The notes under the pieces: generated by a model | The model's input: only the letters and a program-made list of their open reading frames with translations | Told to the model about the DNA's origin: nothing | Database searches by the model: none | In this document: piece after piece, positions 27,042 through 64,000 of the stretch | How the letters are laid out: every line of letters begins with the position of its first letter | How positions within the stretch are numbered: position 1 is the stretch's first letter | DNA from: Takakia lepidozioides | Taxonomy: Eukaryota; Plantae; Bryophyta | NCBI GenBank assembly: GCA_030704615.1 | Contig: CM060733.1 | Span: 46,500,001 to 46,564,000, forward strand | DNA length: 64,000 nt | Direction of reading: 5' to 3' | Translations under genes and position numbers: made by a program

Positions 27042-28570
27042 GTGTTGTTGTACTTAGAGTTGCATGCTTTAGACTCTATGTCTAGTGTTGCACATGGTGC
27101 TATGTTTAATCTCCAGTGTGTGTTTTCTCTTCCATAAGACATAGGTTACAGTTTTCATGTTTTTATGGTGAAATAGTCTCAATTATACACTTTAGTCATT
27201 TGCATGTCTTTGCAGTTGCGCTTTGGAACATATCAACATCATTTATATCTTACTTTTCTGTCTTCAGAATCATCTCTTTGAGTTTTCATCTAGAAATCTT
27301 GAAGTTTTCTCCGGTGCATAACCGGCCATTCTAAAAAAAAATTGTGTTTGCAATGTGCTACTGGTGCATTCGCGGCACTAGAGTTTAAATTTGTTGTACT
27401 GCTACATCTATATTTTGAATCTTTTATAAACCTAAACATTTCTTATTATGTTAACTACAACTTTTGAACCTTCATCCTCGAAACGTCCTCGAATAGAAAT
27501 GGATACTGATGCTAATCGACCATCGTCTTCTTCTTCAATGGGGGAGTGCTCTCCTCCAAGTGGGAATGTTTTTCAACAAGATGGATCTAGTACATTTGTG
27601 GAAGCTACTTGCAAGTTATTGGACAATTCATTCATACATTACTAGAAGGATTTCAAGAGATTACAACGTTTCAAAGCAACTCTCGACCGACTCAGGTCTC
27701 AAGAAGTTGTCGGTGAAATCCCTCACGCTTGTATAAGTTTTTTTTCCCAAAGCTTGTCATTTCTTCTCGAGTCGAGCAATGAAAAGATCAGAGGATTTGC
27801 TCAAAGATGGTTAAGGAAAAAATGACAAGCTTTAGACAAGAAACTCTACAAGCATGAGGGATTTCACCGACAACTTATTGAGATTTGAGTCGGTCGAGAG
27901 TTGCTTGGAAACGGCAATCTCTTAAAATCCTTCTAGTATTGTATCAAGGAATTTGTCCAATAACTTGCAAGTAGCTTCCACAAAGGTACTAGATCCATCT
28001 TGTTGAAAAACATTCCCACTTGTGGCCTCGGAGAAGAGCCCTCCCCCATTTGAGAAGAAGACGATGGTCGATTAGCATCAGCAGCAATATCCATCTCTAT
28101 CCGATGACGTTTCGAGGATGAAGGTTCATAAATTGATGAAGGTTCAAAAGTTGTAGTTAACATAATAAGAAATGTTTAGGTTTATAAAAGATTCAAAATA
28201 TAGATGTAGCAGTACAACAAATTTAAACTTTGGTGCCGCGAATGCACCAGGAGCACATTGTAAACACAATTTTTTTTAAAGAGGCCGGTTATGCACCGGA
28301 GAAAACTTCAAGATTTCTAGATGAAAACTCAAAGAGATGATTCTGAAGACAAAAGAATTGGATATAAATGATGTTGATATGTTCCAAAGCGCAACTGCAA
28401 AGACATGCAAATGATTAAAGTGTATAATTGAGACTATTTCACCATAAAAAATATGATAACAGTAACTTATGTCTTATGGAAGAGAAAACACACACTAAAG
28501 AACAAATGTAGTAGCATATGCAACACTAGACATGGAGTCTAAAGCATGCAACTGTAAGGTACAACAACAC
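27042..28570. repeat. Long inverted repeat (arms ~725 and ~755 bp, spacer ~50 bp)
   Basis: 27042-27766 is the reverse complement of 27815-28570 with scattered mismatches. The mirrored ORFs MLTTTFEPSS... occur on both strands. Confidence 0.93.
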
Positions 28571-36209: not shown

Positions 36210-36475
36210 TTTCTAGAGGGAGAGAGAGGGGGAGAGAGGGGGAGAGAGAGAGGGAGAGGGAGACAGGGTGCATGAAAAAAAAAAAAAAAAAAAAAAAAAG
36301 AGGAGGGGGGGGGGGACTGAGCAGCAGAAGCTGCTCAGTCAGTCCCCCCACCCCCACCTTCTTTTTTGTTTTTTTCTCCTCTCGCTCGCTCTCTCTCTCT
36401 CTCTCCCCCTCTCTCTCCCTCTCCCTCTCTCTGTCCCTCTCTCCGTCTTTGTCCCTCTCCCTCTCTCTCTCTCAT

Positions 36476-36556
36476 GTTTTTATTTCCATTTTCTCCCATA
36501 AGCTCTATGAGCTTCCCGCGGACATTATAACGCACCATTTCATTTCATTTCATTTC
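36476..36556 (+). mobile_element. LINE 3' tail (same family as 59706-61080)
   Basis: CCCATAAGCTCTATGAGCTTCCCGCGGACATTATAACGCACC(ATTTC)n. Confidence 0.7.
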
Positions 36557-38369
36557 TCTCTTCTCTCTCCCTCTACCCTTGTCCCTCTCTCTCCCTCTGT
36601 TTTGTCACTCCCCACAAAAAGGAACAAAGGAGAGAGGGAGAGGGAGAGCGCCTACCTCTGTGGCGTCGGCGTTGCTACCTACGGCGCGTGTCCCCACCCC
36701 CGGAAGGCCTCTCTCCCCCGCTCCGCTGCGCCTCTCTCCCTCTCTTGTGTTGTTGCTTCTCCCGCCTCTGCACGGCTTTCCTACCACCCAGGGGACAGAG
36801 GTGTTAGCACCCTCTTAGGGTTTGGAGAGGAAGAGTGGAAGTGAGAGAAAGAGGGAGCTTACCAGCGGGGTTGGAGCGGCGCTAGGGCGTCTCCGCGTGG
36901 CGACCACCTCGCGCTCAAGACGAGGTTAGTTTTTCCTCCACACTCTCCCCTACACTCTCAGCCCTGTCCCTCCCAAAGCAGAAAAGAAAACAAGGGGGGG
37001 GGGGGGGGGGGGGGGGAAGAGCAGGTGCTTCAAGCACTTAGAAAAAAAAAGACGATTTGCCACGCCCGGCCGTCGCATGTTGGCGCCCCGCCCTTTTTTT
37101 TTAATGTACATTGAAGCTTGCCACGCCCGGCCGTCGCAGCGTGCGACCCCCCGGCGTGGCAGGGTCAAAAAACCTGTCGCATGATGCGACGCTGGGTAGT
37201 GGCATGAATCATGGCAGGGCGTCACATGCCCAGGCTCCCCCTTGTATGTTGGGCAAGCAGGGGTCACTTTTTGGGGTTTAGGGTTTAGGGCCTTTTGGGG
37301 TTCATAGGTTTTGTTTTTTGTTTTTTTTGTGTCATGCCTTCTCAAGGCAGGACTACGGAAAGGGTTCAGCCGCATGAATGATCTGCATTTTTTTTTTTTT
37401 TCCCAGGCCCTTGGGCAATGTTGGACTGGTCATTTTGGGATTTTTTGTTTTTCTTTTTAGTATTTTTTTGATACTGGGTTCTGGAGTTTGAATTTTGTAG
37501 GGTCACTACGGCCTCCCGACGTTGGGGCGTAGAGACCCCTTGCTATTGTAGGGTGGAAAAGGGACATAGGCTTTTTTTTGCCAACGAGTTTTGAGAAATG
37601 AAAGTGCTGGTTGTGTGTATTAATTAGAATGCGATGGTGAGGAAACATCGACCCGTCTCCCTCGAGGATGGGGAGGCGGTACCAGAGATGGAATGGGGCC
37701 CAATTCCAACCGTGTTTTGTGGCGAGGAGCGACCCGTTGCACATTGAGGATGGTGGACACAATCGTAGAAGGGACCGGGCCCAATTTCAGGTGATGCGGA
37801 GGATGTTGACACTCTGGGATCCAGTCGGGCGCGCCGCGGGTTGCCCCCTCGTGGACCACCCCGTGGTGAGAGCCCTGCTAGTCTAGAGGCACAATGCCCA
37901 CGCACGTCCACCTTTGACCCCCCCCCCCCAGAGGATTTGGTGCACTAAGTGTTGGGCAATGATACCGCCGGGTGGCACCAGACCACCGAGGCGGCGACCG
38001 CATGTTGTCGAAGAGCATTACAAGAAGAGCCTGATTGCGGATGCGGCAAAGGTGTATTGATGCGTCGTATACTACGCATATTGTAGCCACAACTTGATGC
38101 CCAAGCTCGCAATCACATTGCATGGGAGCATTTCGCGCCGGTCTGCTTGCAAAATTTATGCCGGAGCCTGTGCCTGATGTGACCAGTTGGTTCCCCCAGC
38201 ACCACGTAGACGAGATGCATAGGGTCGAGGGGTATCGTAGGTGTCGCAAGCGTTATGGCCGGCGACGAGCAGGCCCCCCCCCCCCCCCCCCTCCGGTTTC
38301 CTCAGGCTGTCCCCCTGATCCAGTGTCCTCATCTGATTATTCTCCATGCCATACATGCAGTAGCAGCTT

Positions 38370-39124
38370 GCAAGCTAATTACTAGCACATGTCATCACAA
38401 ACATGTACATCCCTCACAATATATCGACGTATGACCACAAAAGCTCTCATGCCCATCGCTTCGCTCGTCCCATACTACATTTGTTCTCCTTAGGGTGACC
38501 AAAAGAACTGTTGACCAGCCCAGCAACATTGCCGAAGATATCGGGGTCACCATCACAAAATCTGATCTCAATGGGAGACAGCCCCCGTCTACGTACATCA
38601 TATCCGTTGACACACAAAACGTAGGGTAGGATATATGGGGCTTCGAGGCGTAATGTACGGAACTCCCCGGAGGTGTAGAATGGACCGTAGTAAGGAAACA
38701 AGTCCACCATGCTATTGCTCCCACGAGGAACCACAATTTCATCGACCGTGAATAAACCCCGACCCATAGCAGGGTTAGTAGCGGCTCTCACAACATACCG
38801 TCTATCCCAGTACTCGAACTCCACATTCTCTCGGATGGGGGTAGGATGGTCGAGATGATTCCCCCAACAACGAGGCTGAACGGTCCTCGGTAACATAGTC
38901 CTATGCGCTTCCCATCGCGAGCGAGGATCCGGCTCAGGCCGCCCAAGCCGAAGGGGAGGAAACCTAGGGCGAAGCCGACCCCTCCTAGGGGTTCGGGGGG
39001 CACATGCGCGTTGAGGTCGAGGTCGAGGTCGAGGTGGTACTGCTGGCGGAGGAAATGAAAGTGGAGGTGGTTGAGGATGTAATGCCGGAGGTACAACCGA
39101 GGGTATAACGTCCGGATCAGGCAA
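38370..39124 (-). pseudogene. SET-domain (lysine methyltransferase-like) ORF with Pro/Arg-rich N-terminus, C-terminally frameshifted
   Basis: MGRGLFTVDEI...LFPYYG (GxGLF..I...Y.G), YVL, CDGDPDIFGNVAGLVNSS (D....GN.ARF.NHS), then NVVWDE and FVMTCAS in shifted frames. Confidence 0.7.
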
Positions 39125-40328
39125 AGAAACAGACGGGGAGCTACTTGCATCATACGAGTTCTCCCGGGATGATTGGGACCTCCGATTATAGGGTAAATGG
39201 GATGTCTATGATAAAAATAAGGTTTCTTTGAGATAAGGATCGCGTAGATGGGCATTGTAGATATTCTCATGATGTACTTTGTATACATCCGATTAATCGA
39301 TTGATTTAAATATTTTTTCTTGTTGCTCGTGTGGGTTGCGACTTTGCATATGTGATCTGAACATACTTATGCACGTGTGGACCAAATATGAGCTTGAACC
39401 AAGTTCATTCAATGGGTCATTCAAGTGTTGAACGCAGCTACGTGTCGTAGAGACGGAAAACTGCATTTCGCCTGCACATGATTTTTTTTTATTCCATTCT
39501 GAAGCCATATGCTTAGTGACAGCATATGCAATGTGCGTGCACAATTTGGGAGTAAACAAAAGTCATTTGGACCCAGAACCATATTTTCTTCTCTCATTTG
39601 CACTCCAAAGTTGAGTTATCTTCAACTTCATGCACTCTTCATAGAGAGTTTTGCAAAAGTGACCCTAGAAACACATTTTATTTTATTTTTCTATTTTGTT
39701 TTTGTCCAATGTTTTGCATGGATGTAGTGGTGCAAATCCCCATATCACATAATAAAATAGAGCCAAAAATAAAATCATTACGCCCCTCAAAACCGCAATC
39801 CTATATTTTCTAAATCCAAATATTTATTTTAAATTCGATTTAATTCAAAATTGGTTCAAGGTGAGTGCGTCGTTGGGGAGGCAATTTATATATATATTGA
39901 ATCTTTTCACATGTAACACATGGGAAAAAATGAAGTTTGAGCCACATCCGTTTGATGGGTGCAATGGCATGAGAGGATTTTCTTTCACATTAATAAACAA
40001 AATTGGTTGATAGGGTGAACGCGTCCTTGGGGGGGCAAATGATTTTTTTTAGGTTTGAACTTTGCATGCGTGACGTTGCGCACATACATGTAATTACTGA
40101 ATGACATATTTGATGTATGCACACATTGAAGGTTTTTGTTTGCATTTCGCTTATGATAAATTATATGGTTGCAAGGACACATTATAATAAATGCCCGTAT
40201 GTTCATTTGTTCATATCAGGACTTTGTCCCTCCCTTCCCGGTTCTTTCTCATGGCACCCCATCCGAAAACAACCCAAGTACATCAGGTGGGAGCAATGGG
40301 CGAGACGCTGCCCCCACGGTACTGAACG

Positions 40329-42680
40329 ATGATGACGATGACAGTGACAGTGACAACAACAATGAGGATGGAATTAACCAGGATGCAAGCCGTGGAGGAT
40401 CTCTTAATGCATCACGTGGGCGCTGATGCATCTGATGGAGAGGAAACCCGGCCAATCAATGATCTGGATATGGCCCCCTCAAATGACATGGAGAGGGAGG
40501 CGAGAACTCCCTTATATGAAGAGGCGAAAGTGAGTCGACTTACAACAATCTTACTTTTGCTCAATCTTCAAATTCGATTTGGCATAAGTAATGTTGGGAT
40601 GTCTGCCATAATGCGAACTATTGCGGACTATATCCTTGCTCCACACTTGAAACCCAAGATGCCACGGTCGCGGAAAGAGTCGCGCGAAGTCTTGGACTTT
40701 GTGGGGATGGGCTATAAGATTTTTCATGCATGTCTATGTGATAAAACCTTATACTACGGAGATGATTTGCGTCTAACCAAGTGTCCAAAGTGCAAGAAAG
40801 ACCGATATCGAGATGATGTCCAAGGGAAAAAAAGTACCACGCAAGATATAAGCGTCATTCCCCCTCACATTGAAATTATTTTCTTTAATCTTTTCAATGC
40901 ATGTAAAGTGTATTCCACAAAGTTTAGGGTTTAGATAGTAGTACTCATGCAATATCTGATTGTGACTTTGGAAGGAATGAGTAATATTAGCGACGTTTGG
41001 TGTGATCTTTATTTTCCTAATAACGGAGATGGTGCATAAAGGGAAAGATATAAGGGTGTTGTATTATGTGTGCTAATGGGATGATTACATGTGGGGGACG
41101 TGGGGTACTTCATCCTAAAAATGCATTACTTTTCGATCATCCTGCGATTGAAGGCACAGTACCGAAGCCCCACATTGGCTGTTCTGATAAGATGACACGC
41201 CTCGCATCGGAGCCCCCCAAGAAAGGTGTGTAGGCCACAAGATTCACAAGCATGGAGGCATACTGAAGAGATGTGGCATTTTCTCTTGGAGGACCCACGA
41301 CATGTCCACCTCGGCTTCTCCTCGGATGGGGTCAACCCGTACTCTGTCCAGTCATTCCACTTGGCCGGTGACCATGGTGAACTACAACATCCCTCCGTAT
41401 CTTTCAATAAAAAAGAGCCACATCATGTTGGCTGCCATTGTACCAGGTGAGTGTTCCCATTTCATTCTTATTATTCCCTTGGACTTTACATTAATCTTCC
41501 GATCTCTGGCGCAATTCGGATGCAAGATTGATGAGTGACAGAATCATGGAGTAAGATGTGTAATTCATTATGTAGTATAATCATATTGGTGGAGCATTGA
41601 AACAATGATGTGAATGTCTCATAGGGAAAAAACAAGTGGCAAACATGGACACGTACTTGCGACCTCTAGTTGATGAACTTAAGCAGCTATGGAGGGGGGT
41701 CCCGGCATTAGATGCTTCACTTGACCCTATGGCCGGACAATCTTTTCAGATGAGAGACATCTTGTTTTGGACAATGCATGATTATCCAGGTATATTATGT
41801 TCCCCATGAAGAACCCGCGTACATTCACTTATCAAGGCCAGATAATATCGATGAGGATTGGGATTGATTGAAGTAGCGTCGATAGTCTTGTGCACCTTAG
41901 TTGGGTAGATGACATTATGGGCCATGCACATGATAACTTTTTGTCTTTGCTAAAGTGGCGGGATGTGTACAGGACTAACGGTTCGCTCGGGGCTAAGCAC
42001 CAAAGGGTACCATGCATGCTTGCATTGTGGCGATGATCTTGATGCACATAGCTCCCGCCATCTTCACAAGATGGTGTATCCGAACTATCGCAAGTTTCTT
42101 CCTATGAGCCATCGATGGAGAAGAAGAGAAAAACACTTGTTTGATGGCAAAGAGGAAGTACGTCCCCCCCCTGTGACACCATCCGGGCAGTTTTGGGAGG
42201 ACCGATGGAAGAAGGCCCATGCAGGCACGGTCGGTGAAGTAGACGTGCCCGGCATGAAGCGACTTTCAATCTTCTACGAGTTGTCATATTGGGCGGTACA
42301 TATTCCACAAAAACACCATCAATATCATTATGCATGCATGTGATATTGCACATTTTGTATGAGTTACATTGTCACTTTCATGTCAAAATATTTGTGTAAG
42401 TATTTGCGGGTGGGAGTATATGTAGGACCTGAAGATTCGTCATCTTCTAGATCCTATGCATATTGAGAATAATGTTTGCTCGTCCCTTTTTTCGGGTTCT
42501 TCATGGCACGCCGGCAAAGAAGGGAGTAGCTGCAAAAGCAGATTCTCTCGGTGTTAGAAAGGAGCTTGAAGAGCAGGGTCGCATGCGCCGTCTATGGGCC
42601 GAACAAAATGGTGTGGACCCAAAGGGTGTTGTATGGTGGAAGTATAGGCGCGCATCTTGGGATTTGCCATCGAAATAATA
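40329..42680 (+). pseudogene. CACTA Tnp2/Transposase_21-family transposase, intron-containing, degenerate
   Basis: TPLYE...LLNLQ ... IFHAC..DKTLY ... KCPKCKKDRY; DSQAW ... DPRHVHLGFSSDGVNPY; STWPV...YNIPP; MDTYLRPLVDELKQLW; WTMHDYPG; KGYHACLHC; LSIFYELSYW; HLLDPMHIE. Confidence 0.92.
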
Positions 42681-44964
42681 AGACGGTATTGTACCGTTCA
42701 GAACGAGGCCCCGAGATAGCATGAATAATTTGTTCTTAAATATATTGAGACCCAAAATATGTTGTGAGAATGGTTCGCTTGCGAAACAAATCAAACGGTT
42801 GGGATTTGCCATTGAAATAGTAAGTCCTCCGTCTTTCCCCAGAAAAGTACTTCAAGCTTTCGGGTGTGTGTCGGGTATCTGTCTGGAGTTGCACTCTCAT
42901 TCGACTCTATTTGTCTAGAGTTTCACAATCATGGCGCTCTGCATTTGACAACTACTAAAGGTTGGAAAAGTAATAGAGAAACAATTAGTTATTGTATTAG
43001 TCGTGGAATGACCATTCACAGAATATTATTACTACCAATTCTTCCAAGAGAAAGTGCTAACATGAGTGGGAAACTTAACCACTGAATGGGCCGTGAAGTA
43101 GTACTATGGGGAAACTCCCCCATAACCGTACGAAACCTGCAAACCAACTACCAAGGTAGACTGATAGTCTAGACGATAGTACTATTGGTTGCGAGGTTCG
43201 ATGAAAAGAGAGGAGTAGTGGAACTTAGTCCGCATTGACGAATGAATCATAATATTAAGTTTCTTATTATTATTATTTAAATTTTAGGGTACGCAGTCTT
43301 TTCGATTGTTAAGGACTAATGCAACTTCTTCCACCATTCTTGTATATATTAATAAGAATATTGATGAAAAATAATCATAAATTTTAACAGGTCTATGAAT
43401 GGCAATTCCACATCATCCACGACTATAGCACTAATGCAAAAATCCGTATAACATTGTCCCGATCTTAGGTGCTGGGAAACCCAGAATCCAATGAAGATTT
43501 CGTGAGCTGAAGTATCGAGCTAGACCATACATATAAAACCAGATATATTCATTATTTTCACTTGCGAAACCCTATTGGTAGATATACTTCGCTGCCGACT
43601 ACCGAGGATCCATGAAAAGAGGGGAGGATTGACGTTCACTATTAAAAATTACCTTTTGGTATTATTTACATGTTTTGAATTTGATGGTATGTGGTCTTTT
43701 TGATTGGAACCTCTTCCACGCTTGTTGTAGAGGACAACCAAGTCATAAAACCGATACCGTCGGAAAATCAAACAATAGGTAACAATTTTATTTGCTTCCT
43801 TAAACCTCAGATTCTACGTTGAGTTTTTTAATGCCTAACAAAACATTTGTTCTAATAATAATTGTGGTTATAACAATTTCCCAATTCTGCCTCATGTTTG
43901 ATTCACAACTGACATTCATGTTTCCAGTGTCTATCTTTCTTGAAATAGTGGCATCTCGTGGTTTCCTTGTTTATGGGTTAATGTTCTCTATCCCGTGGTG
44001 GATAATCATCTCGTGGCCTTTGATAACGATTACCCATATTGTATCGCATTGGTCCATCCGGTCCTCCCCGTCGGACTTGGATTTGGACTTGGACTTGGAC
44101 TTGGACTTGGTGTACCCCCACCTCTCGTGTGTACCCACTTTTCTTGGCCCGTTGATTGTAAATACAATGAATCATGTTTTGGATGTGACAAAGGCAGTAA
44201 AATATTAAAATAACATGAAACATTCGGAAGAGGTACTAGGGTAGTACTATAAGGTTTGGGGTGTAACTAGAGAAGTGCAATAAGGTTTGGGTTTACGGTA
44301 AAGGTAAGGGTTTAGGGTTTGGATTTAGGGTACAAAGGGACAAACATATGTGATGGACTCACACTCGGTAGAATTAAGAAATGGTTGAGGAATTTGATAT
44401 CCCTGTAATCATTCTATTATACCTTATCCAACAAAAGAAAATATTAAAAGAGCATGAAATATTGAGAAGAGGTAACATGGTAGTACAATAAGGTTTGGAG
44501 TGTAACTAGGGTAGTATATAACACAATTTTAATTAATTCTGGACTTTTGGCTTAAATCCGGACCCAACTTAATATATATTTGAATTAAAATTAATTAATA
44601 ATATTAATAATATCATGGTGTAATGTGTGATTGAACTTTGTGAAATTACAGGTGATGTCATACTTGTTTCAAAATGTGTCATATAAGAGGTCCATTTGAC
44701 ATTGAAGTACTTGTGAAGTAGCGGTACTGAACAATTCATTGAACATCCACTTGGAAGTCGAATAATGTAATATTCCATTATGTAATCATGATAAACAAAT
44801 GGGTCTCATCGAACATGGGGTAGAGACCTACTCTACCATACTCCATACAACTTGCTAGTAATTTTATTGATTGAATCTTCATATCAAGCACAATGTTCAC
44901 ATAAAGGGCTTATGGTAACATGGTCATTTTTGACAAAAACAGAGTAGAAGGGAGGGGTATCCAA

Positions 44965-47900
44965 GTTGATGGCGTTGACGAGCTTCAAAGTAAGCTTAAC
45001 GCATTTAGGCACGTTTAAAAATCTATGAGCAACTGCGACATGGTCGGGCGCAACTAGCTAGGGACACTTTGATGTGCCCTCTCGGAGGGCGTACTGTCAG
45101 TTCAAGATTCCTGGAAGTAGGTCCACGCAGATATAATCAAAGCTAGATTAGACTCATCTGTTAAACTTGGAGGCTGCCCTTGTTGAATATTTGCAAGAGT
45201 TCCAACGAAAGCCTGTCGAGAGTTTAAGGGAGGCTTACACGCGCATGAGACCATTGATAAATGTAACCCAAAGGATTACGGAAGCTCAAGCAGTCCAATT
45301 CTATTATGGGATATTGGACAAGAAGCTGAGGAGAAGGATGCGGGATGCAACTCTCATACATGTGGCCCAACCCACCTTAGCAAACGTATTTTTGCTGGCA
45401 GAGCGGATAGAGCTCAATATGGTGGAGGAGCGAGTGGTCATGGTGGGGTTTGGTCAGGAGACACAATGAAGTGGGGCTCCTAGCCAACAACAACCACTGC
45501 TCCAACGTGCTCAAGGCAACAAGAGGGCTCAGGCGAAGCCCAGGGAAGGGCCGAGAGGATCTCAATTGCAAATGTCACTTCCTTCATTCTCAGACCAACA
45601 ACAGTCGGGTGTGACATGTTGGGATTGTGGAGGACCCCATGTTAAGAGAGATTGCCCGGAAAGAGGCAAAGGGCCGGCACAGGCACAACTTACACAACTA
45701 CAATGTGGGCATTATGGCAAGTATGGGCATGAAGAGGCCCATTGTTATGATTTGCATCCTGAGCTACGGCCAGGCCAGTTCCAAGGGAACAATGGTGGCC
45801 GAGGACGAGACAATGTAGTCCAGAGAGGTAGAGGAGGCAGAGGTCGTGGTGGAGGTTGTAACCAAAACCAAAGAGCACAGGGTCAGGGTCAAGGTCATGA
45901 CCAAGGCATGGTGGATAGGCTTGCCCAGCTAGAGCAACGTCTTGCTACCATGGCCACTATTCATGTTGCGCCAGCTCCAAGGCCTGAGGTTCAAGCCTCG
46001 CCTGCACAACCTCCTATGCCTAGGGAAGACCAGATTGGTATGGGCTTCATGTGTGGAGCCACACTTGCAGGACCATTGCATGTGGACTCTGCAGCTGCTG
46101 TCACTCGAGCAGCAACGTGTGCTCCTGAGCCAAGAAGAGCGGATGTGGATTTTGATCCACAAAGAGGGGAAGCAAGTCGGCAGACAAGGCTTCCACAGTC
46201 TTTCACATTGGCTGAGACAATGCCAACTATGCCATCGATGGCACACGCTCGCCCAACTGTATCAGAGGTAGAGCCACGAGTGTCATTGGAGAGAGTTGGT
46301 ATGGCTCGGGAAATGCCAGTGGGTGGTACTGCAAAGCAAGGTGCAGCCAGTACATTGTTGGGGGCGGCTATAGCAATTTGTCAAGCTCCATTGTTTTCTG
46401 CCACGACAATTGCAATGCCGGAGATGCGGACAGCTGCAGTGTTTAGACTGGCAGTTGCACTCTGTGAGAGTGATGATGCATCGACACTATCTGCGGGGAT
46501 AGCGGATCAGATGCAGTGCATGGATGCCATAGATTCAAGGGTGAAGACAGCCACAGCTGCGCCATGGCAAGCGGCAGCTGCAAGGTGGCAGGAGTTGCCA
46601 GCTAGACCAACCATTGAGCATAGTATGGTGACTCCTAGGGTAGTCCTGGTGGACAATCAGAATGGTGTGTTTCAGTTGGGTGGCCCAGCCGGGAGGAGGT
46701 ATAGGCCACTGCGGGTTTTGTTGGACTCGGGAGCACAACCATTGATGTTGGGAAGAGTAGCAATTGTAGGCTTGGGCCTTACAGAGGCGGATTTGGAGCC
46801 TTGCCCTTTCCAAATTCAAACATCTTTGGGCGGTTCAGAGAAGGCACGAGGGATTACACACCATGAGCTCTTCATTCGATTGCAGCCAGATCATCCTACA
46901 GATGGCTCTGTCATGAGAGCTAAAGCCATTGTTACGGTTTCTATGATCCATCGCTACATTCCCAATAAACCGCACTGGGAGTAGTGCACGTCGACCATCC
47001 CCTGATTGCCATTCCGGCCTGTAGGATGCCGTTTCCTCCCAAAAGTCCAAAGTAAAGCCCATCGGGTATAACACAGCCCCACCAACAATCACATCATAAG
47101 ACATCGCATCGGCTGTATTCTCAGGAGTGGTGGCTTGGGGTGGTGAACTCTTGGAGGGCAATAGCAATGCAGATGATAGGCCACCACCTGATGAGGACAA
47201 ACAATTGGCATACAAGGCTTATTTGCTTCCTCATGTGCCTGTTCATATTCCACTATGGGGTACAGTTGGGAATTTGCATCGAATAGCAGACGAGTGTGTG
47301 CACCAAGCATGGCAGGATGCCTATCCATTGGCGAGTGAGGGGGGTTCAGTGACATCACCTGGACCTCCTTAGTTAGCTCCTTTGGATACAGTGCACATTA
47401 CCTGGCAACCACCTGACTCAGGGATTTGTTTGCTAGACCTGTTTGGAGGCATGAGCACTGGGCTTGCAGGAGTGTTGCAAGTTGAGATTAAAGTACAAAA
47501 GTACTTGTATGTGGAGAATGATGAGATAGCTCGGCGTATTTCTATGCGTCACGTTGTCTTGCTCACACACCAGTACCCTGAGTTGCTGCCTCTCTCAGCA
47601 ATTCAAAAGTACCAAAAAGCCTTGCCAGCAGACATTACCATGTTGGGGGCGGATGATTTGGGCCGGCATGGTGCCATTGACTTGGTGATAGCCGGATGGC
47701 CTTGCCAAGGACACTCTCCCGCAGGTCATGGGAATGGCTTGCATGATGCACGATCGCATTTGTTTTGGGAGATGTTGAGAGTGTTGCGTGACTTGTAGAC
47801 GAGGCAAGTGCAACCTCTAGCCTATATCTTGGAGAATGTTCCTCTTATGGGGGACTCTCGGGCCAGGGTTATGGCCAGTGTGCATCAGGTGCGGTCTTGG

Positions 47901-50780
47901 ATTGGATCGACGATGCTATTGGATGCAGCAGCGGTGGGATCATGCGCGCATCGACCTTGATTGTGGTGGACCAATCTTGCACCACCAGAGCTGCTCAAAA
48001 GAGCATATGATTCCATTCAACAGCCACCCAATCTCACGGTTGAGGGCATTTTGGACCAAGGGAGGCAACCACAGAGGGTGCGACATGATGACTGTCCACC
48101 TCTAGCAGTTGTCAATCGAGTGGGGCAGCCACGTACAGCCTTGCCTACGCTCATAAGCTTTCCCTCGTCTCATGCTTTTCGAGACAATGGTCCTGGGTTG
48201 ATTTGGGATAGTATGCTACAGCAATTGGTGGAGCCCAATGCGGATGAGCGCGAGCAGGCAATGGGGTTTGCCACGGGTACTACAGCTGTGCCAGCTCTGT
48301 CAGAGGCATCACGACGCCAGGTGTTGGGTCAGGCAATGGATCTCAATTGCATGATATGGGTCATTGGCTTGTGCATGGCTGAGCAACGGAGATTGCAAGC
48401 ATTGGTGGCTACTTCTGCACTTCCATTGGATATTGCACCATCTCTGCCAACCGGAACGTGAGTGGGGGCGAGCACAGGATCATGGGGTGCAAACACCCAT
48501 GGCAGATGTGGGATGAGATGCGGAAAGAGAGAGTCCTTAGATCTCTCAAGCAGCAATATGAGGAGTGGGGAGAGCCATACACTGAGGATCAGTTAGAGGC
48601 CAAGGTGACCAATGTTTTTGAAGAGGTTGAGAATGTTTCTTCCCCAGAGGATGTTCTCAAGGTGGCTATGGCGGAGCAAGTGGAGGCTACGCCACAGTCA
48701 GATTGGGCGGACAAGGCCCAAAAGGTTGCTATCTAGCAACCAAAGGATTCGTCTCCTACCTCCAAGCCTGGTGTACCCAAGGTTGCAGTCATTGAGGACA
48801 ATTGGGAACCAGATGTTGGACCTACAGTCACCGGAGGAGAGAGACAGAGGATCCAGCGATTTCTAAGGGCTTATAGAAATTGCTTTGTCTTCGGTTTGAA
48901 GGATTTGGGGAGTTTGAAGGGTCAGGAGATTCGTATTGATTTGACAAGTGACACGCCAATCTTTCGAAGGCCCTACCGGTATAGTGACATGGAGAGGTCA
49001 TTGATCTAGTCACGGACTATGAAGTTGTTCGAAGCTGGATTGGTGGAGTTGTCAGGCGGGGAATATGCCTCGGCAACGGTGATGCCAGCTAAGAAGGATA
49101 TCTATGGCAATTGGACAGAAAGAAGGAAGTGTGGGGACTATCGTCCTGTGAACCGTCAGACTAAGTCCCATAGATATGCCATGCCAACTCCAGAGGAAAT
49201 TTTTGATGCCATTGGGCATGCGAAGGTGTTTAGCACATTGGACTTGCGATCCGGTTACCACCAGTTGCCAATAAAAAAGGCTGACAAGCAAAAGATGGCA
49301 TTCTGGGGGATTAACCAACATGGGAATGATTGCTTGTACCAATGGCGCTTCCTACCGTTTGGGTTGAAGAATGCTCCTACAGAGTTTCAGAGGGTTATGG
49401 ATAGGATTCTCGCGGGGCTAGACTTTGTCCGGTGTTACATTGATGACATCATTATCTTTAGTGCTACGGTTGAGGAGCATGAGAGACACCTTCAGGTGGT
49501 GTTTGAGCGCTTGAGAACGCATGGGTTGAAATTGCACCCTGGGAAGTGCAAGTTCTTCCACAACCAGATTGAGTATCTGGGCCACATGATATACCCTGGA
49601 GGATTGGGTGTTCAAAAGACGAAGGTGGAGGCCATTGCACGCATTCCACGCCCCATAGATGTTAGCAAAGTTCGTGTTTTCATGGGGTTGACAAACTACT
49701 ATCGACGGTTTGTCAAGGAATTTAACAACATTGCAAATGCTCTTACCAAGTTGACCAAGGTGGGTTAGGAGTGGCAGTGGGAGGAGGAGCAGGAGGAAGC
49801 CTTTGAGGAATTCAAGGCTCGATTGACTTCTGCATCTATTCTGAGGCGGCCTATTCGGGGGCGGTCTTTCCAGCTACATACGGATTGGAGTATGCTGGGA
49901 ATTGGAGCAGTGCTCACACAGGTGGATGACAAGGGAAGAGAGTTCGTAGTGGCATATGCCAGCCACTCGAACAATGATGCCGATGCGAAATATAGCTCAT
50001 ATGAAGGGGAGTGTCTAGCTGCGATAGGGGCAATGACACATTTCAGATGCTACCTCTATGGCAACCTCTTCACCCTTGTCACGGATCACCAACCATTGAA
50101 ATGGTTGATGGAGTCAGACAAGCTTACAGGGAAGCTTGCATGGTGGGCACTTATGCCTCAAGAGTACGACTTCCAGGTGGTGCATCGAGCCGGTATAGTC
50201 AATCGGGATGCAGATGGGTTGAGTCGTAATCCATGTACGAGTGAGCATGATGATACTGGTGCTCGGTGGCATGGTGAGACGAATGAGGAGATGGTGCCAG
50301 GATGGCATGCATCTGTCTTTTTGTGCATCCTAGCAATGGGAGCTCAAGCTGGTCCATCCCATAACATTGGTCATGTAGATGGTGTGCATGACGATCCGGA
50401 GATCAGTGAGGAGCTTGGTGGTGCTAAGGATGTGCATGAAGATGCAGCAGTGTTGACCTACCTTCGCCAAGAGGTTCAAGTGGGAAGGGACTCACCTACT
50501 CCGAGTATGGGAGGATAGACGAGTGAGGATTGTGCCTCATCCAACACAACGAGCGCGATTGGTACGTCATGCCCATGAGGAGTTGGGACATTTTGGGGTG
50601 CAGCGCACTCATAGTTTGCTGCAAGGACAGTACTTGTGGCGAGGCATGCATACAGAGGTGCAACAGTTAGTGACAAGGTGCATGGTGTGTGATAGAGTGC
50701 GGGCTTCTTTCAATGCATCTACTCCACAATTGCATCTTTTACCCATTATGGGTTTGGGCTATCGTTGGAGTCTTGACTTC
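44965..50780 (+). mobile_element. Ty3/Gypsy LTR-retrotransposon internal region: gag-PR-DNMT-RT-RNaseH-INT(N), degenerate, no LTRs retained
   Basis: Zinc knuckle CWDCGGPHVKRDC; protease LLDSGA; RT CGDYRPVN, LDLRSGYHQ, PFGLKNAP, YIDDII; RNase H LHTDWS, EGECLA, TDHQPL, ADGLSR; integrase HEELGHFG..CMVC and WSLDF, cut at ~50780. Confidence 0.95.
47382..48400 (+). pseudogene. C5-cytosine DNA methyltransferase catalytic domain inside the Gypsy pol region
   Basis: One frame, motifs in canonical order: I LLDLFGGMSTG, II YVEND, III ADIT, IV IAGWPCQGHS, V DARSHLFWE, VI ILENV, VIII AHRP*LWWTN, IX EREQAMGF, X QVLGQAMD. Interrupted by stops at 47796 and 47958. Confidence 0.9.
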
Positions 50781-51332
50781 GCAAAACTTAGTATGAACAG
50801 TAGAACAAATAATAGATTGACAAACATTATCTTTGTTAGTCCATTCATCTTCATCTTCAGCATTCTCCTTGGGGCCTCTCCAGTAATAATTTCTAGAAGC
50901 TTTTTGGCACGAAGCATGACACTCATATGAAATTTCCACAATTGGAAATTTTCTTCATTGAACTTCTCAACGGTGACCAGGTCTCTAGGATCATTCTTGG
51001 TTGCCATGCTTGCTAAAGGGACTCTAGAAGAAATTGATCTCTAAAACAAATCTATGTACCACAAAACTAGCGTTTCTAACATACTGTCAAGAACGTGAGT
51101 AACTGTAGTAACAAAAGAAACAAGTCTGCCTATGGAAGTAATGGTCGTGGGCCCATAACCTATTGAAAACACTGACTTAGGACAGACTTGAGTTAGTCAA
51201 GAGATGCAAGAAGATCTTTACTCATAACTAAGTCACAGATCTAGCAAGCCTCATGCGCTCTGTATGGAATTGAGATACAACTACCTTGCAGGGTGTGACA
51301 CTAAATATGCAACGAGTATGCAACCCTCAACA
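50781..51332 (-). mobile_element. Ty1/Copia 5' fragment: LTR, PBS and gag start
   Basis: LTR TGTTG...CAATA (51332-51161); PBS GGTTATGGGCCC (half-tRNA-Met type); gag VEKFNEENFQLWKFHM..ML.AKKLLEIITGE. Confidence 0.85.
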
Positions 51333-58000: not shown

Positions 58001-61000
58001 ACTCAAACTTGAAACAAGATTTTTTTTTTGTTAACTACTAGGTATAGATGGTAAAGATCCAATAGGGACTATCGAATCTCAACAGTTCCCTTGGAAATGC
58101 CAATAACTGTGAACCACATAGTCAACCCTGAAATGGGGAAAGCTTGTCAAAGAAGCCTTCAACATAGAGTTTTGACAACAACATGAAGAAGTGCATACGA
58201 ATGATGTCAACAGGCTATATGGGTACCCCACACAAAACAGGTGCTCACTTAGAAACACGCAAGGGGGTTTCTAAGATGTGGCGATCAAGTTCATCCTGCT
58301 TGTGGGATTAGGTATGCCAAGCTCTGGCTTAAATAGGTGCTAGCTGCAGACATGTGTTTGGCTGATACAATTCTAAAGAGAGCTAAGTTGGACACCAACA
58401 CTGCTGGTGGGCTGCACTGATCTAATTTGTTGCAGAGGGAGAAGAGAACAACCAATTACCAGGCTGAAATGTAATGAATCATCCATCAGACTTGCAGCAG
58501 AATTCCTCCCTCAACGCTCAGACCCGATGCACAGGTGTGGAGTATTTCCTCTCAGGAGAAGTTACTCTGGAGCATGCACAAACTTAATGCCTACTTCTTT
58601 TCGTTTTCTTTATTGCTGGAATGAGCCAAGATGGGGCAAGAGGATGTACCCTGAGGTGGGTAGGGGTTGATCCTCCAAAGTTAGCAATGCAGACCCAGAG
58701 GGCGCTGAGTAAATATAGGGTTGCAACGGCACCACAGAAATGTACACGAACCCAGTATCTGAGGCATTCAAATCATCCAATATAAAGTATACCAAGGAAT
58801 CTGGGCCGATGTAAGTACCATTGGGGGTATAAACCACTGAGGAGCCATTCGCGGTTGCAAACCCATTGCTTGGACCCTGCGGTGAAGCTTCAAAAACATA
58901 GGTGTGGCCATTGCACCTGCCTCATTTTTGGCTTCTTGATTCTAATATTAGGACTTCGCCAGGTGAGTCCTACACGTTAGCTAGCATCTGGCAATGGTAA
59001 TATGTTCTTGTCCCACTCAAGTCCTCCCCCTCCCATGTGTTAGAATTTCAGCATGGCAAGCTAGCTACATCAAGAATCTTTGTGCTCTACTCATTTGTTT
59101 TCTCTGCCCTAGACTCTCTGATGTTTGTTTGGTTCCTTTGCATACTTGCTGAACAACGGTGCTACTTTTGTCTAGCATCTATATAGCTCTCTCCACTAGT
59201 TTCAGGTCACACCTGTGTGGATAGATAGTATGACATTGGTAGAACATTCTTCATGCATCTTTCTTCCCAAGTCAACCTATTCATTGGGTTACTCTGATCT
59301 TGTTTGTTTAAGTGGTGCAGTTTGCACAGATGGCTTGTGCTATTGGCCTCCGAAGCTCAGAAGACCTGATTGGGTCAGAGGGGGACTCTCAATCTCAGTT
59401 CCCCAATCAAGCACTTGGAATAACGACGAACCAGGGAACCAAGCCTGGTCACTTAAATCAAACATTGCTTACCTGGGAAATACCTCCAAGCATTATACTC
59501 ATTTCACTGCCCAAAATATCATTGTCCAGCACAGCAATGTTGACAGGTGTCCCAATCCAAGTCCACGCTGTGTCATCCACAGCCACGGGAGGAATGTGCT
59601 CTGGACATGCAATTATACCCTAAATATGTCAGCAAGTAGTCTTCAAGATAGCCCTTGCTCACAAGTTGCAACTCATGTTTCTGCAATTTGTATATCCTCC
59701 CTGAGACATGAAATGGTACTTTATAACGTCTGTGGGAAGGGCAAAGAACTTATGGGACAATAGGAAGAAGAAACAAGAAAGAGAGAGGGGCCACAAACAG
59801 AAAAGCAACTAAAGCTCAAGGGATTGTCTAAGAGTCGATGCTTCATGCCGGTAAGCTGCCAAGCAATTCTGATCCTCGAAAAGGAAGACCTCTGTGAGAG
59901 ATTGGGCATCCCAGAGTAGACAGTTGAATCTCACACGTAAAAGTGGTGCCCCCAACCACCAGCCACCACAACCATGCAACTACAACTCAACTTTGAAAGA
60001 AAGAATGAAAGAAATATGTTACATACACAGGAAGCCCATTGGGCACAGTAGAGAAATAACATGAAATAGTATTATACAACGTCCACGGAGAGCTCAAAGA
60101 GCTTCTGGGACAGAAATGAAATGAAATGGTACTTTATAACGTCCGACAAAGAAACAAGAAAGAGAAATGAAATGAAAGAACGAACAAAAGAAATTTACTA
60201 CGTCGATGGGAGGGCACAAGGACCCAAGGGTCACAGTAGAATATGCAGTAGAACCACAGAAAACTGAAAAATCCACAGAACAACTAGACCCACACATAGA
60301 CAGAGTACTCATGGGGGTAAGCTGCTAAGAGAAATGAAATGAGATGAAATGGTACTTTATAACGTCCAGAAAGAAAGAAAAGAAGAGCGAAAATAAATGA
60401 ATTTATGAAGAAATCTATAACATCCAGAGGAAGCTCAAAGAGCTTACAGGAAGAAAAAGGGCAGAAAGTAAGAAAGCAGGGTCCTCAAACGGAAAGGAAA
60501 ATGAAATGAAATGGTACTTCATAACGTCCGGCAAAAGCTCAAAGAGCTTATGGGACAAAAGGAAGCAAGAAAACAATAAAGAGAGCAGGGCCACAAGCAA
60601 GAAAAAGATGAACTGAAATTATTCTTCACAACATTCGCAAGAAGCTCAAACATCTTATGGGACGAGGAAGAAAGAAACAAGAGAGAGGGGGCACAAACAG
60701 CCCAAAATCAACTAAGCTCAAGGGATTGTCTATCAGTCTATGCTTCATGCAGGTAAGCTGCCAAGCATTTCTGAACCTCATAATTGAAGAGAAATGAAAT
60801 GAAATGGTGCTTTATAATGTCCGCGGAAAGCTCATAGAAATATGGGACAAAATGGAAATGAAATGAAATGAAATGGTGATTTATAACGTCCGCGGAAAGC
60901 TCATAGAGCTTATGGGACAAAATGGAAGAAAACATGAGAGAGGAAACAAAAACCAGAGCCAGAGATAAAAACTATTGTTCCAGTGATTGTCTAAGGGTGA

Positions 61001-64000
61001 GTGCCTCGTGCAGGTAAGCTGCCAAGCATTTCTGATCTTAAAAGTGGAAGACTTCAGTGAGAGATTGGGTTCCACGGAAGAGAGAAAGAAACTTTATTGC
61101 ACCTGCAGGAAGAACACTGGGGCCAAGGTGGAAAGCACTGGGTGTAGGGCAATCAAAGCTCACCTACCAAGAGGTGGAAAACTTTGGAGACATAGGACGG
61201 ACAGGACTCACGATAAAATTGGCTTACAGCAGGTTGAGCAGTTTGTACAGGTTTCAATCAACACCAATGGACTTCAAACAGCTCAATTGATCTACTCCAA
61301 ACAGCTTCAACCCAGGGAAGGGCTTTGCAATCACAAAAGTAACTCAGGAGAGTTTTGCAAGGTCCACAATCCTGGACCACCCAATTAACGCTTTATGGCT
61401 TACTACCCCAATGGTCTGATGTACTACAGGCGGCCGTATAAATGACTGTCTTGAGGAATCCTTGCCAGAAAACAGAGACTTATGTTTAGGTACCTCTCAA
61501 TCCCTTTATCCTGACTGCCTGGAGTGCATTTACAGTTCATTTTGAGCATGAGGATATAGAGGCGCTGCTTTAACCTGCTAAAACATCAATTTCATAAGGG
61601 CTGCCGTTGATAGGAACATCATCCAGGGTGATCTGCAGGCTGTATGGCCCTGGACTTGAGACTGTGAACCATGAAATGTAGCTTCCGTTTAGTAAGTCGG
61701 TTGTGTTTCGAATGGCATCCTCGGTAACAGGTGGAGGAACAACTTCTACCTGTCCAGGATTAAGAAAGTAGAAATGTTTGACCTTCCAGAAAAAAAGAAA
61801 TCACAGTTCCTAGCAGTTTGCTCCTCAATGCTGACTTCCCCACTTAGCAGCAATCAACATTTTATTTTGGACTGCTACTGGGTCTATGCTCAGTTCAGGT
61901 ATTTTGTTTTTGCTTTTGCTGTCTAATATACTAATCCCAAACCTCTCAATCTGATGTTTTTGATATAATATTTGATGCTCATCCCACAGTCTCCATGTCT
62001 CTTCTTGGAATGCTCCTTGTATAGGTATTTAGGTTTAAAGACCAGAGTTTCCTAGCAGCTGACCTTCACGTGGTGCTCTGGCTTCATGCAGTGTTGTAGG
62101 CCTGATTTTCCAGTGCTTTCTTTGTTTGGTATAAAGTACCACTTCATTTCATTCCTTCCTTCCTTCCTCAAAAGAACTCCAAGAACTAAGAGATGCCCAC
62201 TAGTTGTGGGATGTGCATTCTAAATACCCCAAAATTGGTTGGATTATCTTTAGTGTAGCTAAATCCATGTGCATGTGATGATCACAGGGAGGAGATGCTG
62301 TAGAGATATTGCTCAGGCAAGGTCAGTTTTTGGCAGGGAGCGACAGTGATAGTCAAAGTCTTCAGGTCCATGCTAACAGGCCACAAAAGGGTGGCAGGAG
62401 GGAGTTTTGTGAGTGTACCTTAAATGTCAACGGTATGCCCGAAATTGCTATTGACCCATTGGCAGTCTGAGTTGTTATGATCACAGCGGTGTGCTGTCCG
62501 ACTGTAGTATTTGGGCTGGGTAGTATTTGAGCTGAGCACAAGTTGGCTCCAACTGCCACACCTGAAAATTCAGCACCATTCAACATTGGGTTAAGTTGGA
62601 AAAAAATTTAGAGATGTATATCAATCATATTGTCCTTGCTAGAGTTACTTTATGGAAATTTTCCTTGTATCTTGATCCACTATCTGTTCCGTGAAAACCA
62701 ATCCTCACAGAAGTCTTCCATATGAGGATCAGAAATGCTTGGCAGCTTATCTGCACGTAGTTTGACACTCGGGCAATCCCTCGAGCAGTAGTTGCTTTTG
62801 GGCTGCTTCTGGCTTCACGCTGTCTTTTATTCTCTTTCTTGTTTTTTGTTTCCCTTTTGTCCAATAAGCTCTTTGAACTTTCTGCGGAGTTTATCAAGTC
62901 CCATTTCATTTCACTTCTTACGGGTGAATAGGTCATGGGTACGGTCTGTGGGAGAGCCACGTTTGTCTAGGAGGAAACCGTCGACGTCATGCCCCAGCAC
63001 CACCTGCCCCATTTGGACAGCTAAAAATGGTGGATGTGGTGGTTCACTTTTGGGCAGTATGCCTTTGGTACATCAGGAATAAATTCAGTACCTTGGCCCG
63101 CCCATTCAAGCTGAACTAGTACCACCACCTTACCCTAAGTACATTCTTCTCCAGTTTTGTTTACATACACAACTTATAAGCTAAGAAATATGTGCATCAG
63201 TCACTGACAGCCTTCAGTAACTTTAGAGAAAACGAAGATTCTACATCAAAATGAAAGGGTTTGCAAACCTAAAATGTGATGAAATCACTACTGAAAATGC
63301 AAAAATCTCCAGAAGTGCCAAAGCGTACCAGTGATGCCGTAAGAGAAAATAAAAGGCGACCCTGAAATGTTGACATTGGAGGAGTCCATAACATACAGAA
63401 GATATTGCCCAGGGTTTTGTAGGCTGAAAGTCACTTGCTGAAATTGATTCGACCCATTTCCAAATGCAGAATAAGTCATATCAGGCGTTGAGACAGGGTT
63501 CCCCAAATTGGTCTTGTCATATACCTGGGCGAAGAAGCTAGGAGCTGTGCTTGTCAACTGTGAGAACATACTCCCTTGTGAGGAATTTCCACCAGTATAC
63601 ACAGGATTTCCACAGGCGTCTCTTTGATCTATCAAAAAGGTAGCCCGGGTGCCAGCCCTAAAGAAGGGCACACCTTCTCGCCAATTCCCTTTGCAATTTG
63701 ATGTGAAGATTGGGCCTAGAAATTCGAACAAAGGACCAATAATCAACCAGGCACATAGCGAGAGATCCTCTAATAGCGCAAACTGTATTTCTGACTATTG
63801 CAATTGCTGAGTACACAGTGATGCTTGAACAGGTTGCACAAAATACCATGGGGGTAAAATGATGGTTTCTTCCCAGTGAAAGTGTGTTGAATGTTTGTCT
63901 TGACCCAGGATGTATTTCAGCCGAAGACCTACAAACAGTGCAAGAACATGGAAGGTGCCTGCAAGGTCTATTGGGTGAGAGGCTCTATACCAAGCTGAGG
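55088..64000 (-). CDS. GEX2: GAMETE EXPRESSED 2 (filamin/Ig-repeat single-pass membrane protein), 5' end outside window
   Basis: Exons ~63716-63330 (W....FRAGTRATFLIDQRDACGN...ISGSPF), 62562-62419, 61750-61575 (NGSY...PGPYSLQI...INGSPY), ~59600-59473 (PVAVDD...LDND), 58878-58652 (YTPN..YIGPD), 57910-57625 (F.GNV..VNKAIQALQY), 57225-56985 (VQPVNDPPFI, VGDPD), 56700-56475, 56090-55945 (VDDMGNFAC...C), TM exon 55715-55570, and a probable last exon 55181-55088. Confidence 0.88.
59706..61080 (-). mobile_element. Cluster of about 10 5'-truncated LINE (RTE-X-like) 3' ends in a GEX2 intron
   Basis: Repeated (AAATG)n-GTACTTTATAACGTCC..AAAGCTCA.AGAGCTTATGGGAC units. Longer copies include an ORF2 end like YE(D/V)QKCLAAYLHE. 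Confidence 0.75.
62688..62915 (+). mobile_element. Same LINE 3' end, opposite orientation
   Basis: CCATATGAGGATCAGAAATGCTTGGCAGCTTATCTGCAC ... ATAAGCTCTTTGAACTTTCTGCGG ... CCATTTCATTTCA. Confidence 0.7.

Follow-up and report, generated by a model that had tools for sequence, protein, structure and literature searches.

The stretch analysed here, called the window throughout, comprises 64,000 nucleotides of the moss Takakia lepidozioides (assembly GCA_030704615.1, contig CM060733.1, positions 46,500,001 to 46,564,000 of the forward strand), and a Pfam scan that returned F-box, PPR, GEX2-like, and aspartic-protease-type domains marks it as a piece of a land-plant genome. It holds a transposon with two genes set back to back, a SET-domain gene on the minus strand and a CACTA transposase gene on the plus strand, both of which are broken and both of which would be transcribed outward from a shared 1-kb spacer. 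This divergent arrangement, described in an earlier note on the same DNA, was recovered in our analysis. We read the locus as a decayed, 3′-truncated copy of a high-copy plant CACTA-type element with its own opposite-strand SET gene, and we tentatively propose that the intact product is a lysine methyltransferase that marks histones and thereby counters silencing.

The left end of the element is formed by CACTTAGAAAAAAAAAG at 37035 (positions are those of the window), the sole CACTA-like end across the 64 kb. Although this sequence alone is weak evidence, as 29 of 100 shuffles match it at one mismatch, it comes with direct and inverted subterminal repeats that are not expected by chance, and we therefore accept 37035 as a CACTA end, as had been claimed before. 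A subterminal 19-mer has three matches (37059, 37120, and, inverted, 37142–37160) against 0.00 expected, and a fourth, degenerate inverted copy lies at 37184–37204; the 170 bases that follow 37035 contain a 21-mer twice in identical form and twice more as degenerate inverted copies. The terminus reads CACTT, not CACTA/G, and the combination of a CACT end with repeats in direct and inverted orientation is seen on the left side only. Judged by sequence, the terminus and its repeats are arranged as is typical of CACTA elements, and by analogy the repeats are likely TnpA binding sites. Maize En/Spm, whose single transcription unit includes no SET, has a spliced TnpD and a CACTA end with both direct and inverted repeats next to it; the element described here shares the end, the repeats, and the spliced TnpD, but it also has a SET gene, and neither TnpA nor a right end lies in the window. 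No TnpA-type Pfam match occurred among the 145 frame queries scanned, the element being truncated. In the left arm, the GC-rich repeat at 37600–38260 is silent in one minus-strand frame at five of seven listed differences and in one plus-strand frame at four of seven; contigs of two probable RNA runs cover 38153–38285, and the repeat may represent an additional exon or gene within the element.

The transposase has a TnpD-like start from about 40220 and four Transposase_21 matches above the Pfam cut-off on the plus strand between 41191 and 42340 (E values of 3e-14 to 2e-8). Its 3′ part is cut near 42700–42800, after which single-copy DNA follows at 42840–43790. Contig comparison indicates that other copies differ from it by indels at 40827, 41349, 41966, and 42487, and a word-index search, which is weak evidence in this respect, gave no transposase relatives of greater length. 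A repeated stretch of unknown type at 43791–45058, between the single-copy DNA and a neighbouring Ty3 element, could be a 3′ remnant of the CACTA element.

Table 1 Features of the CACTA-type element in window coordinates
Feature	Position	Strand	Basis or remark
CACTA-like left terminal sequence	37035..37051	+	Sequence; unique in the window, which contains no partner end; points into the element
Subterminal repeats: a direct pair of identical 21-mers plus two degenerate copies in inverted orientation	37057..37204	unstranded	Repeat search
GC-rich repeated left-arm segment, may be coding	37600..38260	either	High contig depth; no Pfam match; atlas best score 0.76
Damaged C-terminal SET motif	38350..38380	-	Other copies read R-T-I-R-A-G-S-E-L-F
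Middle SET pieces (RRTNVVW...; YMFVMTCAS) between frameshifts 38491 and 38410	38381..38490	-	Family-profile read-through
SET N-terminal two thirds (GxG, YxG, GNVAGLVNSS)	38492..38896	-	33 protein matches at E ≤ 1e-3; 105 bits to the profile of relatives
Open Pro/Arg-rich leader in the SET frame, without an assigned start codon or first exon	38897..39205	-	Relatives align weakly up to about 39000
AT-rich spacer between the back-to-back genes	39206..40219	unstranded	Probably the promoter region; contains a ~300-bp module at about 39350–39670
TnpD-type CACTA transposase of about five exons; broken and 3′-truncated	40220..42700	+	Transposase_21 in four pieces

The SET gene, from 38896 to about 38350 on the minus strand, is a pseudogene in this copy and has no intact open reading frame. 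MGRGLF, YYG, and DGDP..GNVAGLVNSS share one minus-strand frame (38450–39205), in line with the earlier note, which had also included FVMT.A in the same reading frame; the latter motif does lie in that frame but beyond two stops, the true reading shifting frame at 38491 and returning at 38410. The C-terminal knot motif at 38380–38356 is damaged by additional small deletions, and by eye a Tyr codon at 38353–38351 lies near the expected site of the catalytic Tyr. A profile built from 40 relatives, with the window row excluded, has a single match in the window (38887–38489, 105 bits), a score that is partly circular as the relatives were recruited with this SET piece. When both breaks were read through with bridging X residues, the family-profile score rose by 21 bits, from 114 to 135, and RRTNVVW and MFVMTCA aligned to the C-terminal half of the family, which is absent from the query. 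A word-index search with the SET piece of the window produced no match at E ≤ 0.01 among its 29 candidates. The NHS box reads NSS and neither a pre-SET nor a post-SET Cys cluster lies within 37035–40330, both as previously noted; a zinc-finger first exon sought in the same interval was not found, nor was any reader or DNA-binding domain found in the SET protein.

Contigs of four public runs reveal the family behind this copy. They cover 37450–42840 without a gap at a summed depth far above that of the single-copy stretch, and the SET bins reach 200–1200 times the single-copy stretch in runs X1–X3 and, in each of the four runs, 0.44–1.4 times the transposase. The SET gene is thus high-copy together with the rest of the element, which agrees with the claim that a transposon carries it and not with a one-off capture. 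Over 38150–38900, 937 contigs of X1 were aligned, with most of the listed differences carried by nearly all of the depth; this copy is a decayed outlier within a well-defined high-copy family. Among the differences listed, the only frame-shifting indels within the SET gene are at 38410 and 38491, exactly the frameshifts of this copy, and a 912-nucleotide contig of run X7, which spans 38380–38900, has 41 substitutions and neither frameshift. Where the C-terminal motif is damaged here, DNA contigs carry the sequence given in Table 1, which matches the family motif TIRAGDELF. Contigs identical or nearly identical to the window extend across 38278–38461, which shows that neither the break at 38410 nor the lesions in the C-terminal motif result from an assembly error. 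Differences from the family majority fall on the third codon position in 15 of 27 cases (p = 0.015), the 27 being taken from a listing of 40 of 58 rows, and this pattern hints at selection on the SET codons. The CpG observed/expected ratio is 0.72–0.97 in the element, 0.47 in the neighbouring Ty3 element, and 0.88 in the single-copy stretch; we do not count the higher ratio of the element because the single-copy stretch is also high. Separately, two probable RNA runs, each from a different study, have contigs in which only a 78-base piece of the SET gene (38784–38861) occurs, with identical foreign flanks; these contigs may stem from a host transcript or from a different element that has absorbed the fragment.

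A HMMER search of 1.84 billion proteins with the SET piece gave 33 matches at E ≤ 1e-3 with 29–44% identity, from which a 2209-residue repeat protein (P0009) was dropped as unrelated, leaving 32 relatives. PF00856 matched 19 of the 33 at E ≤ 0.05 and 10 above the curated cut-off. Among the 30 clusters looked up, five are gene models of the liverwort Riccia sorocarpa and one is from the whisk fern Psilotum nudum. The structure predicted for an intact relative, P0018, is of high quality (predicted local distance difference test score (pLDDT) 90.5, predicted TM score 0.86), and Foldseek retrieved 242 PDB matches at E ≤ 1e-3 (E 1e-6), with SET or PR proteins throughout the matches listed. In the VIA comparison, P0018 aligned with EZH2 (Z 12.6, root-mean-square deviation 2.9, 138 residues aligned), Set1 (Z 11.9), and SET8 (Z 11.6), and it also matched viral SET proteins (E 7e-7). 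According to this model, P0018 has the SET fold with its C-terminal knot. The SET identity assigned in the earlier note is therefore upheld by the relatives, which carry PF00856 and fold as SET, although the two checks it had proposed, with HMMER and by structure prediction, succeeded with the relatives and not with the window piece itself. In a quick tree of the relatives alone, built without host, viral, or bacterial SET proteins, the window row is long-branched and groups with P0004 and P0011 at a support of only 83, and we base no conclusion on this placement. Two relatives have an N-terminal CxCxxC finger, neither the left arm nor the scanned relatives showed a methylase domain, and none of 26 viral-contig stretches gave a relative.

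It could be supposed that the SET gene derives from a single capture of a host gene fragment that has since been carried along to no effect. The copy in the window is dead and the selection test is weak, as that explanation would have it, but the copy level is high, the frame is intact in other copies, and the relatives occur as contigs and as liverwort gene models that are multi-copy and dispersed, with no recognisable host SET class among the 33 matches. We regard single capture as highly improbable and as largely refuted. By its sequence the SET gene belongs to no canonical host class (SUV39, SET1, SET2, or EZ), as it has neither the His of the NHS box nor the flanking Cys clusters. The SET family is real, is borne by a land-plant CACTA transposon, and is dead in this copy.

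Under the customary names of the SET motifs, GxG is present in 35 of 38 cluster representatives, YxG in 36, N/Q-S in 33, G-E in 27, and G-E...Y with the final Tyr in 25, and most of the misses are cut-off predictions. The His of the NHS box is present in 0 of 38, and NSS is therefore a signature of the family and not a sign of decay. This His-less motif set defines the SET family, of which Pfam detects only about a third of the members. Against PDB sequences, the family profile matched best to LegAS4 (E 2.5e-5), ahead of eukaryotic SET proteins at 0.05 and weaker, and LegAS4 reads INFS at the NHS box. Legionella RomA/LegAS4 (8swi, 5czy) resembles the family in its compact SET domain with GRGLF and YxG and in the absence of the NHS His. 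It is an active H3K14 methyltransferase that needs its ankyrin repeats for H3 (PMC10653858), and at about 21–23% identity the likeness implies neither close kinship nor gene transfer. The absence of the His throughout the family, together with the lack of a post-SET zinc site, might suggest that the SET protein is a catalytically dead decoy or binder, as the earlier note had considered. This possibility is weakened, and we give it little credence, since GxG, YxG, the Asn, and the last Tyr are kept across 29–44% identity. An active enzyme is likelier than a decoy because the core motifs are kept, NSS is family-wide, and an active SET protein without this His exists in LegAS4; by comparison of sequences, intact copies probably encode an active S-adenosylmethionine-dependent lysine methyltransferase.

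The substrate of such an enzyme may, by a slight preference, be a histone. An unlikely but substantive alternative is an active SET protein with a non-histone target, either TnpA/TnpD or a host silencing factor. It would fit the lack of a reader, pre-SET, or post-SET module, and it would fit P0016, a liverwort gene model that joins SET to a TnpD-like tail (19 of 47 residues identical, E 0.45). SET7/9 is a largely non-histone enzyme, and EZH2, Set1, SET8, and SET7/9 all lie within about 1.3 Z of one another in the comparison with P0018. On the other side, histone enzymes head the structural comparison and supply the best sequence match, though the substrate is not fixed thereby. EZH2 is the top VIA row, and transposons of early plants can carry H3K27me3 (10.1101/2022.10.24.513474); from these two points it might be argued that the SET protein writes a repressive mark and restrains its own element, a self-silencing that limits harm to the host. 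With the rows within 1 Z tied and the family very abundant, we hold this outcome to be improbable. Counteraction of silencing, not self-restraint, is the outcome that we favour, at somewhat less than even confidence overall.

Several observations weigh against an active anti-silencing SET gene housed in one CACTA family, and a first group concerns the joining of the two genes. Neither a right end nor a target-site duplication is present in the 64-kb window, so that the pairing of 37035 with the transposase is not directly demonstrated; no contig of the four runs bridges the SET gene and the transposase; and 52 contigs of X1 depart from the window sequence at 39662, within the spacer, one of two sites (39662 and 39621) with many loose ends. 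The spacer module of about 300 bp is far more abundant than the element, with a depth about 10–25 times that of its flanks in X3 and X5. All of this would also suit two CACTA units, a SET arm and a transposase, that were joined or nested here, for example via the module, in a layout private to this locus. Such a join is unlikely in our judgement, as the depths on the two sides of the module are alike (2634 versus 2089 in X3; 43 versus 53 in X5), and the SET gene would remain within a CACTA end regardless. A further copy runs collinear with this one between 38238 and 38367. Among the 15 of 86 joints listed, the sole opposite-strand joint, 38372 to 39116, has single-copy depth (X1, X2), and hence no family-wide inversion is evident; one copy seems to be inverted or folded back in the SET region. 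From the similar depth across the element, we consider it very probable that SET and transposase belong to one element family-wide. In some copies the module (39336–39670) is tandemly repeated, as a joint from 39634 to 39336 suggests.

The remaining adverse points concern the data and the protein. The four runs represent two samples and two studies, X1–X3 being one sample and possibly the source of the window itself, and summed contig depth is not copy number. X7 is from another study, its RNA nature is guessed, and it carries no strand information; its contig reads, by eye, G-S-T where the DNA contigs read G-S-E, and it may be a decayed copy too. Silent differences in the SET codons (11 of 27 versus 7.7 expected, p = 0.11) are not significantly enriched. 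The SET piece of the window alone has no match in Pfam or among PDB sequences, and the predicted structure of its 134 residues (pLDDT 72.7) has no significant fold match, the best (Z 4.2) being a non-SET protein and SET proteins reaching at most 3.8; a poor match is expected because the knot strands are missing. The substrate is unreadable from the structure, as activating and repressive SET classes score flat, and the activity, substrate, and localisation attributed to the SET family are predictions from comparisons of sequences and models. Finally, the metagenome scan of 248 candidate stretches gave one locus (L001), in which a CACTACAAGAAAA end, accompanied by repeats of its own, truncates the SET gene at 228; we read this locus from its sequence as a SET gene interrupted by the insertion of another CACTA element, and it is silent on the layout of SET and transposase. 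The inserted part of L001 (228–1367), whose end carries ATGACTA-type repeats, has a minus-strand frame without a Pfam match that we take, by eye, to resemble the TnpA C-terminal domain.

If the preferred reading of a histone-directed, anti-silencing enzyme holds, the SET protein, having no targeting part of its own, would have to be recruited by a partner, most simply by TnpA bound to the subterminal repeats. Once recruited, it would methylate histone tails near the element, which would stay open, and host silencing would be countered. A broader proposal, which we regard as doubtful, is that of an old, transposon-confined, His-less SET family in non-seed land plants that takes two forms in CACTA elements, an exon spliced into the transposase gene and a separate divergent gene. 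By writing a histone mark that protects the element, its members would act as transposon-encoded anti-silencing enzymes.

SET cargo as such is not new, being described in four other transposon groups. HarbingerS elements and Phytophthora MuDR elements carry SET genes (PMC12730594), and Helitrons capture SET (PMC12730594; bioRxiv 10.1101/2025.02.11.637652). Like our CACTA element, these are cut-and-paste or rolling-circle transposons with a SET gene of their own, but they belong to other superfamilies and hosts, and we liken them by description, not by SET sequence. Closer is the red-algal Plavaka, in which PAG2 is a SET domain fused to an N6-adenine DNA methylase (bioRxiv 10.1101/2025.02.11.637652). 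It too is a CACTA/EnSpm-related transposon with a separate accessory gene that contains a PF00856 SET, for which a chromatin role has been proposed; however, PAG2 sits in a three-gene PAG1–3 cassette, whereas here a small, lone SET lies beside a Transposase_21-type CACTA transposase in a land plant, and this likeness again is one of description. In stating that CACTA accessory genes are usually TnpA- or Ulp1-like and that some DNA transposons encode anti-silencing factors, the earlier note had missed that SET cargo was already described in several groups of DNA transposons, Plavaka included. A survey of fusions between transposon and chromatin genes counted 823 gene models, SET domains among them (bioRxiv 10.1101/2021.11.30.470311). 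We found no published case of a land-plant CACTA element with SET among the papers listed in searches that were judged on titles and the beginnings of abstracts and that excluded subscription journals and Repbase. In Arabidopsis, VANC of the MuDR-type VANDAL elements is a DNA-binding anti-silencing protein that triggers hypomethylation (PMC12730594; bioRxiv 10.1101/2025.02.11.637652). Like the SET gene, VANC is an accessory gene of a plant DNA transposon thought to manage the epigenetic state of its own element; VANC binds DNA, whereas the cargo here is likely an enzyme without a targeting domain.

Several neighbouring features of the window were also recorded. A broken Ty3/gypsy element on the plus strand (45000–50930) contains, between protease and reverse transcriptase, a piece of a C5 cytosine methyltransferase (PF00145, E 2.4e-9, 47373–47795), so that two elements bearing chromatin enzymes lie side by side; Ty3/gypsy elements with a cytosine methyltransferase are in print for charophytes and dinoflagellates (PMC5890265). 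A long, near-perfect palindrome occupies 27053–28558, with arms of up to 181 nucleotides at 95–99% and about 750 nucleotides per side overall. A GEX2-like host gene, whose product has filamin/Ig repeats, is represented by exons on the minus strand at 58613–63794, and a satellite-like GAAATGAAAT repeat family occurs at 59700–61050, 62840, and 36470–36560.

The SET protein of this family is a single domain of about 200 residues, relatives with an intact frame are available, and liverworts and mosses are tractable hosts. Counter-defence as known from plant transposons, in VANDAL, consists of DNA binding and loss of methylation, and the SET cargo of a land-plant CACTA element would allow the question of whether a transposon writes histone marks for itself to be asked directly.

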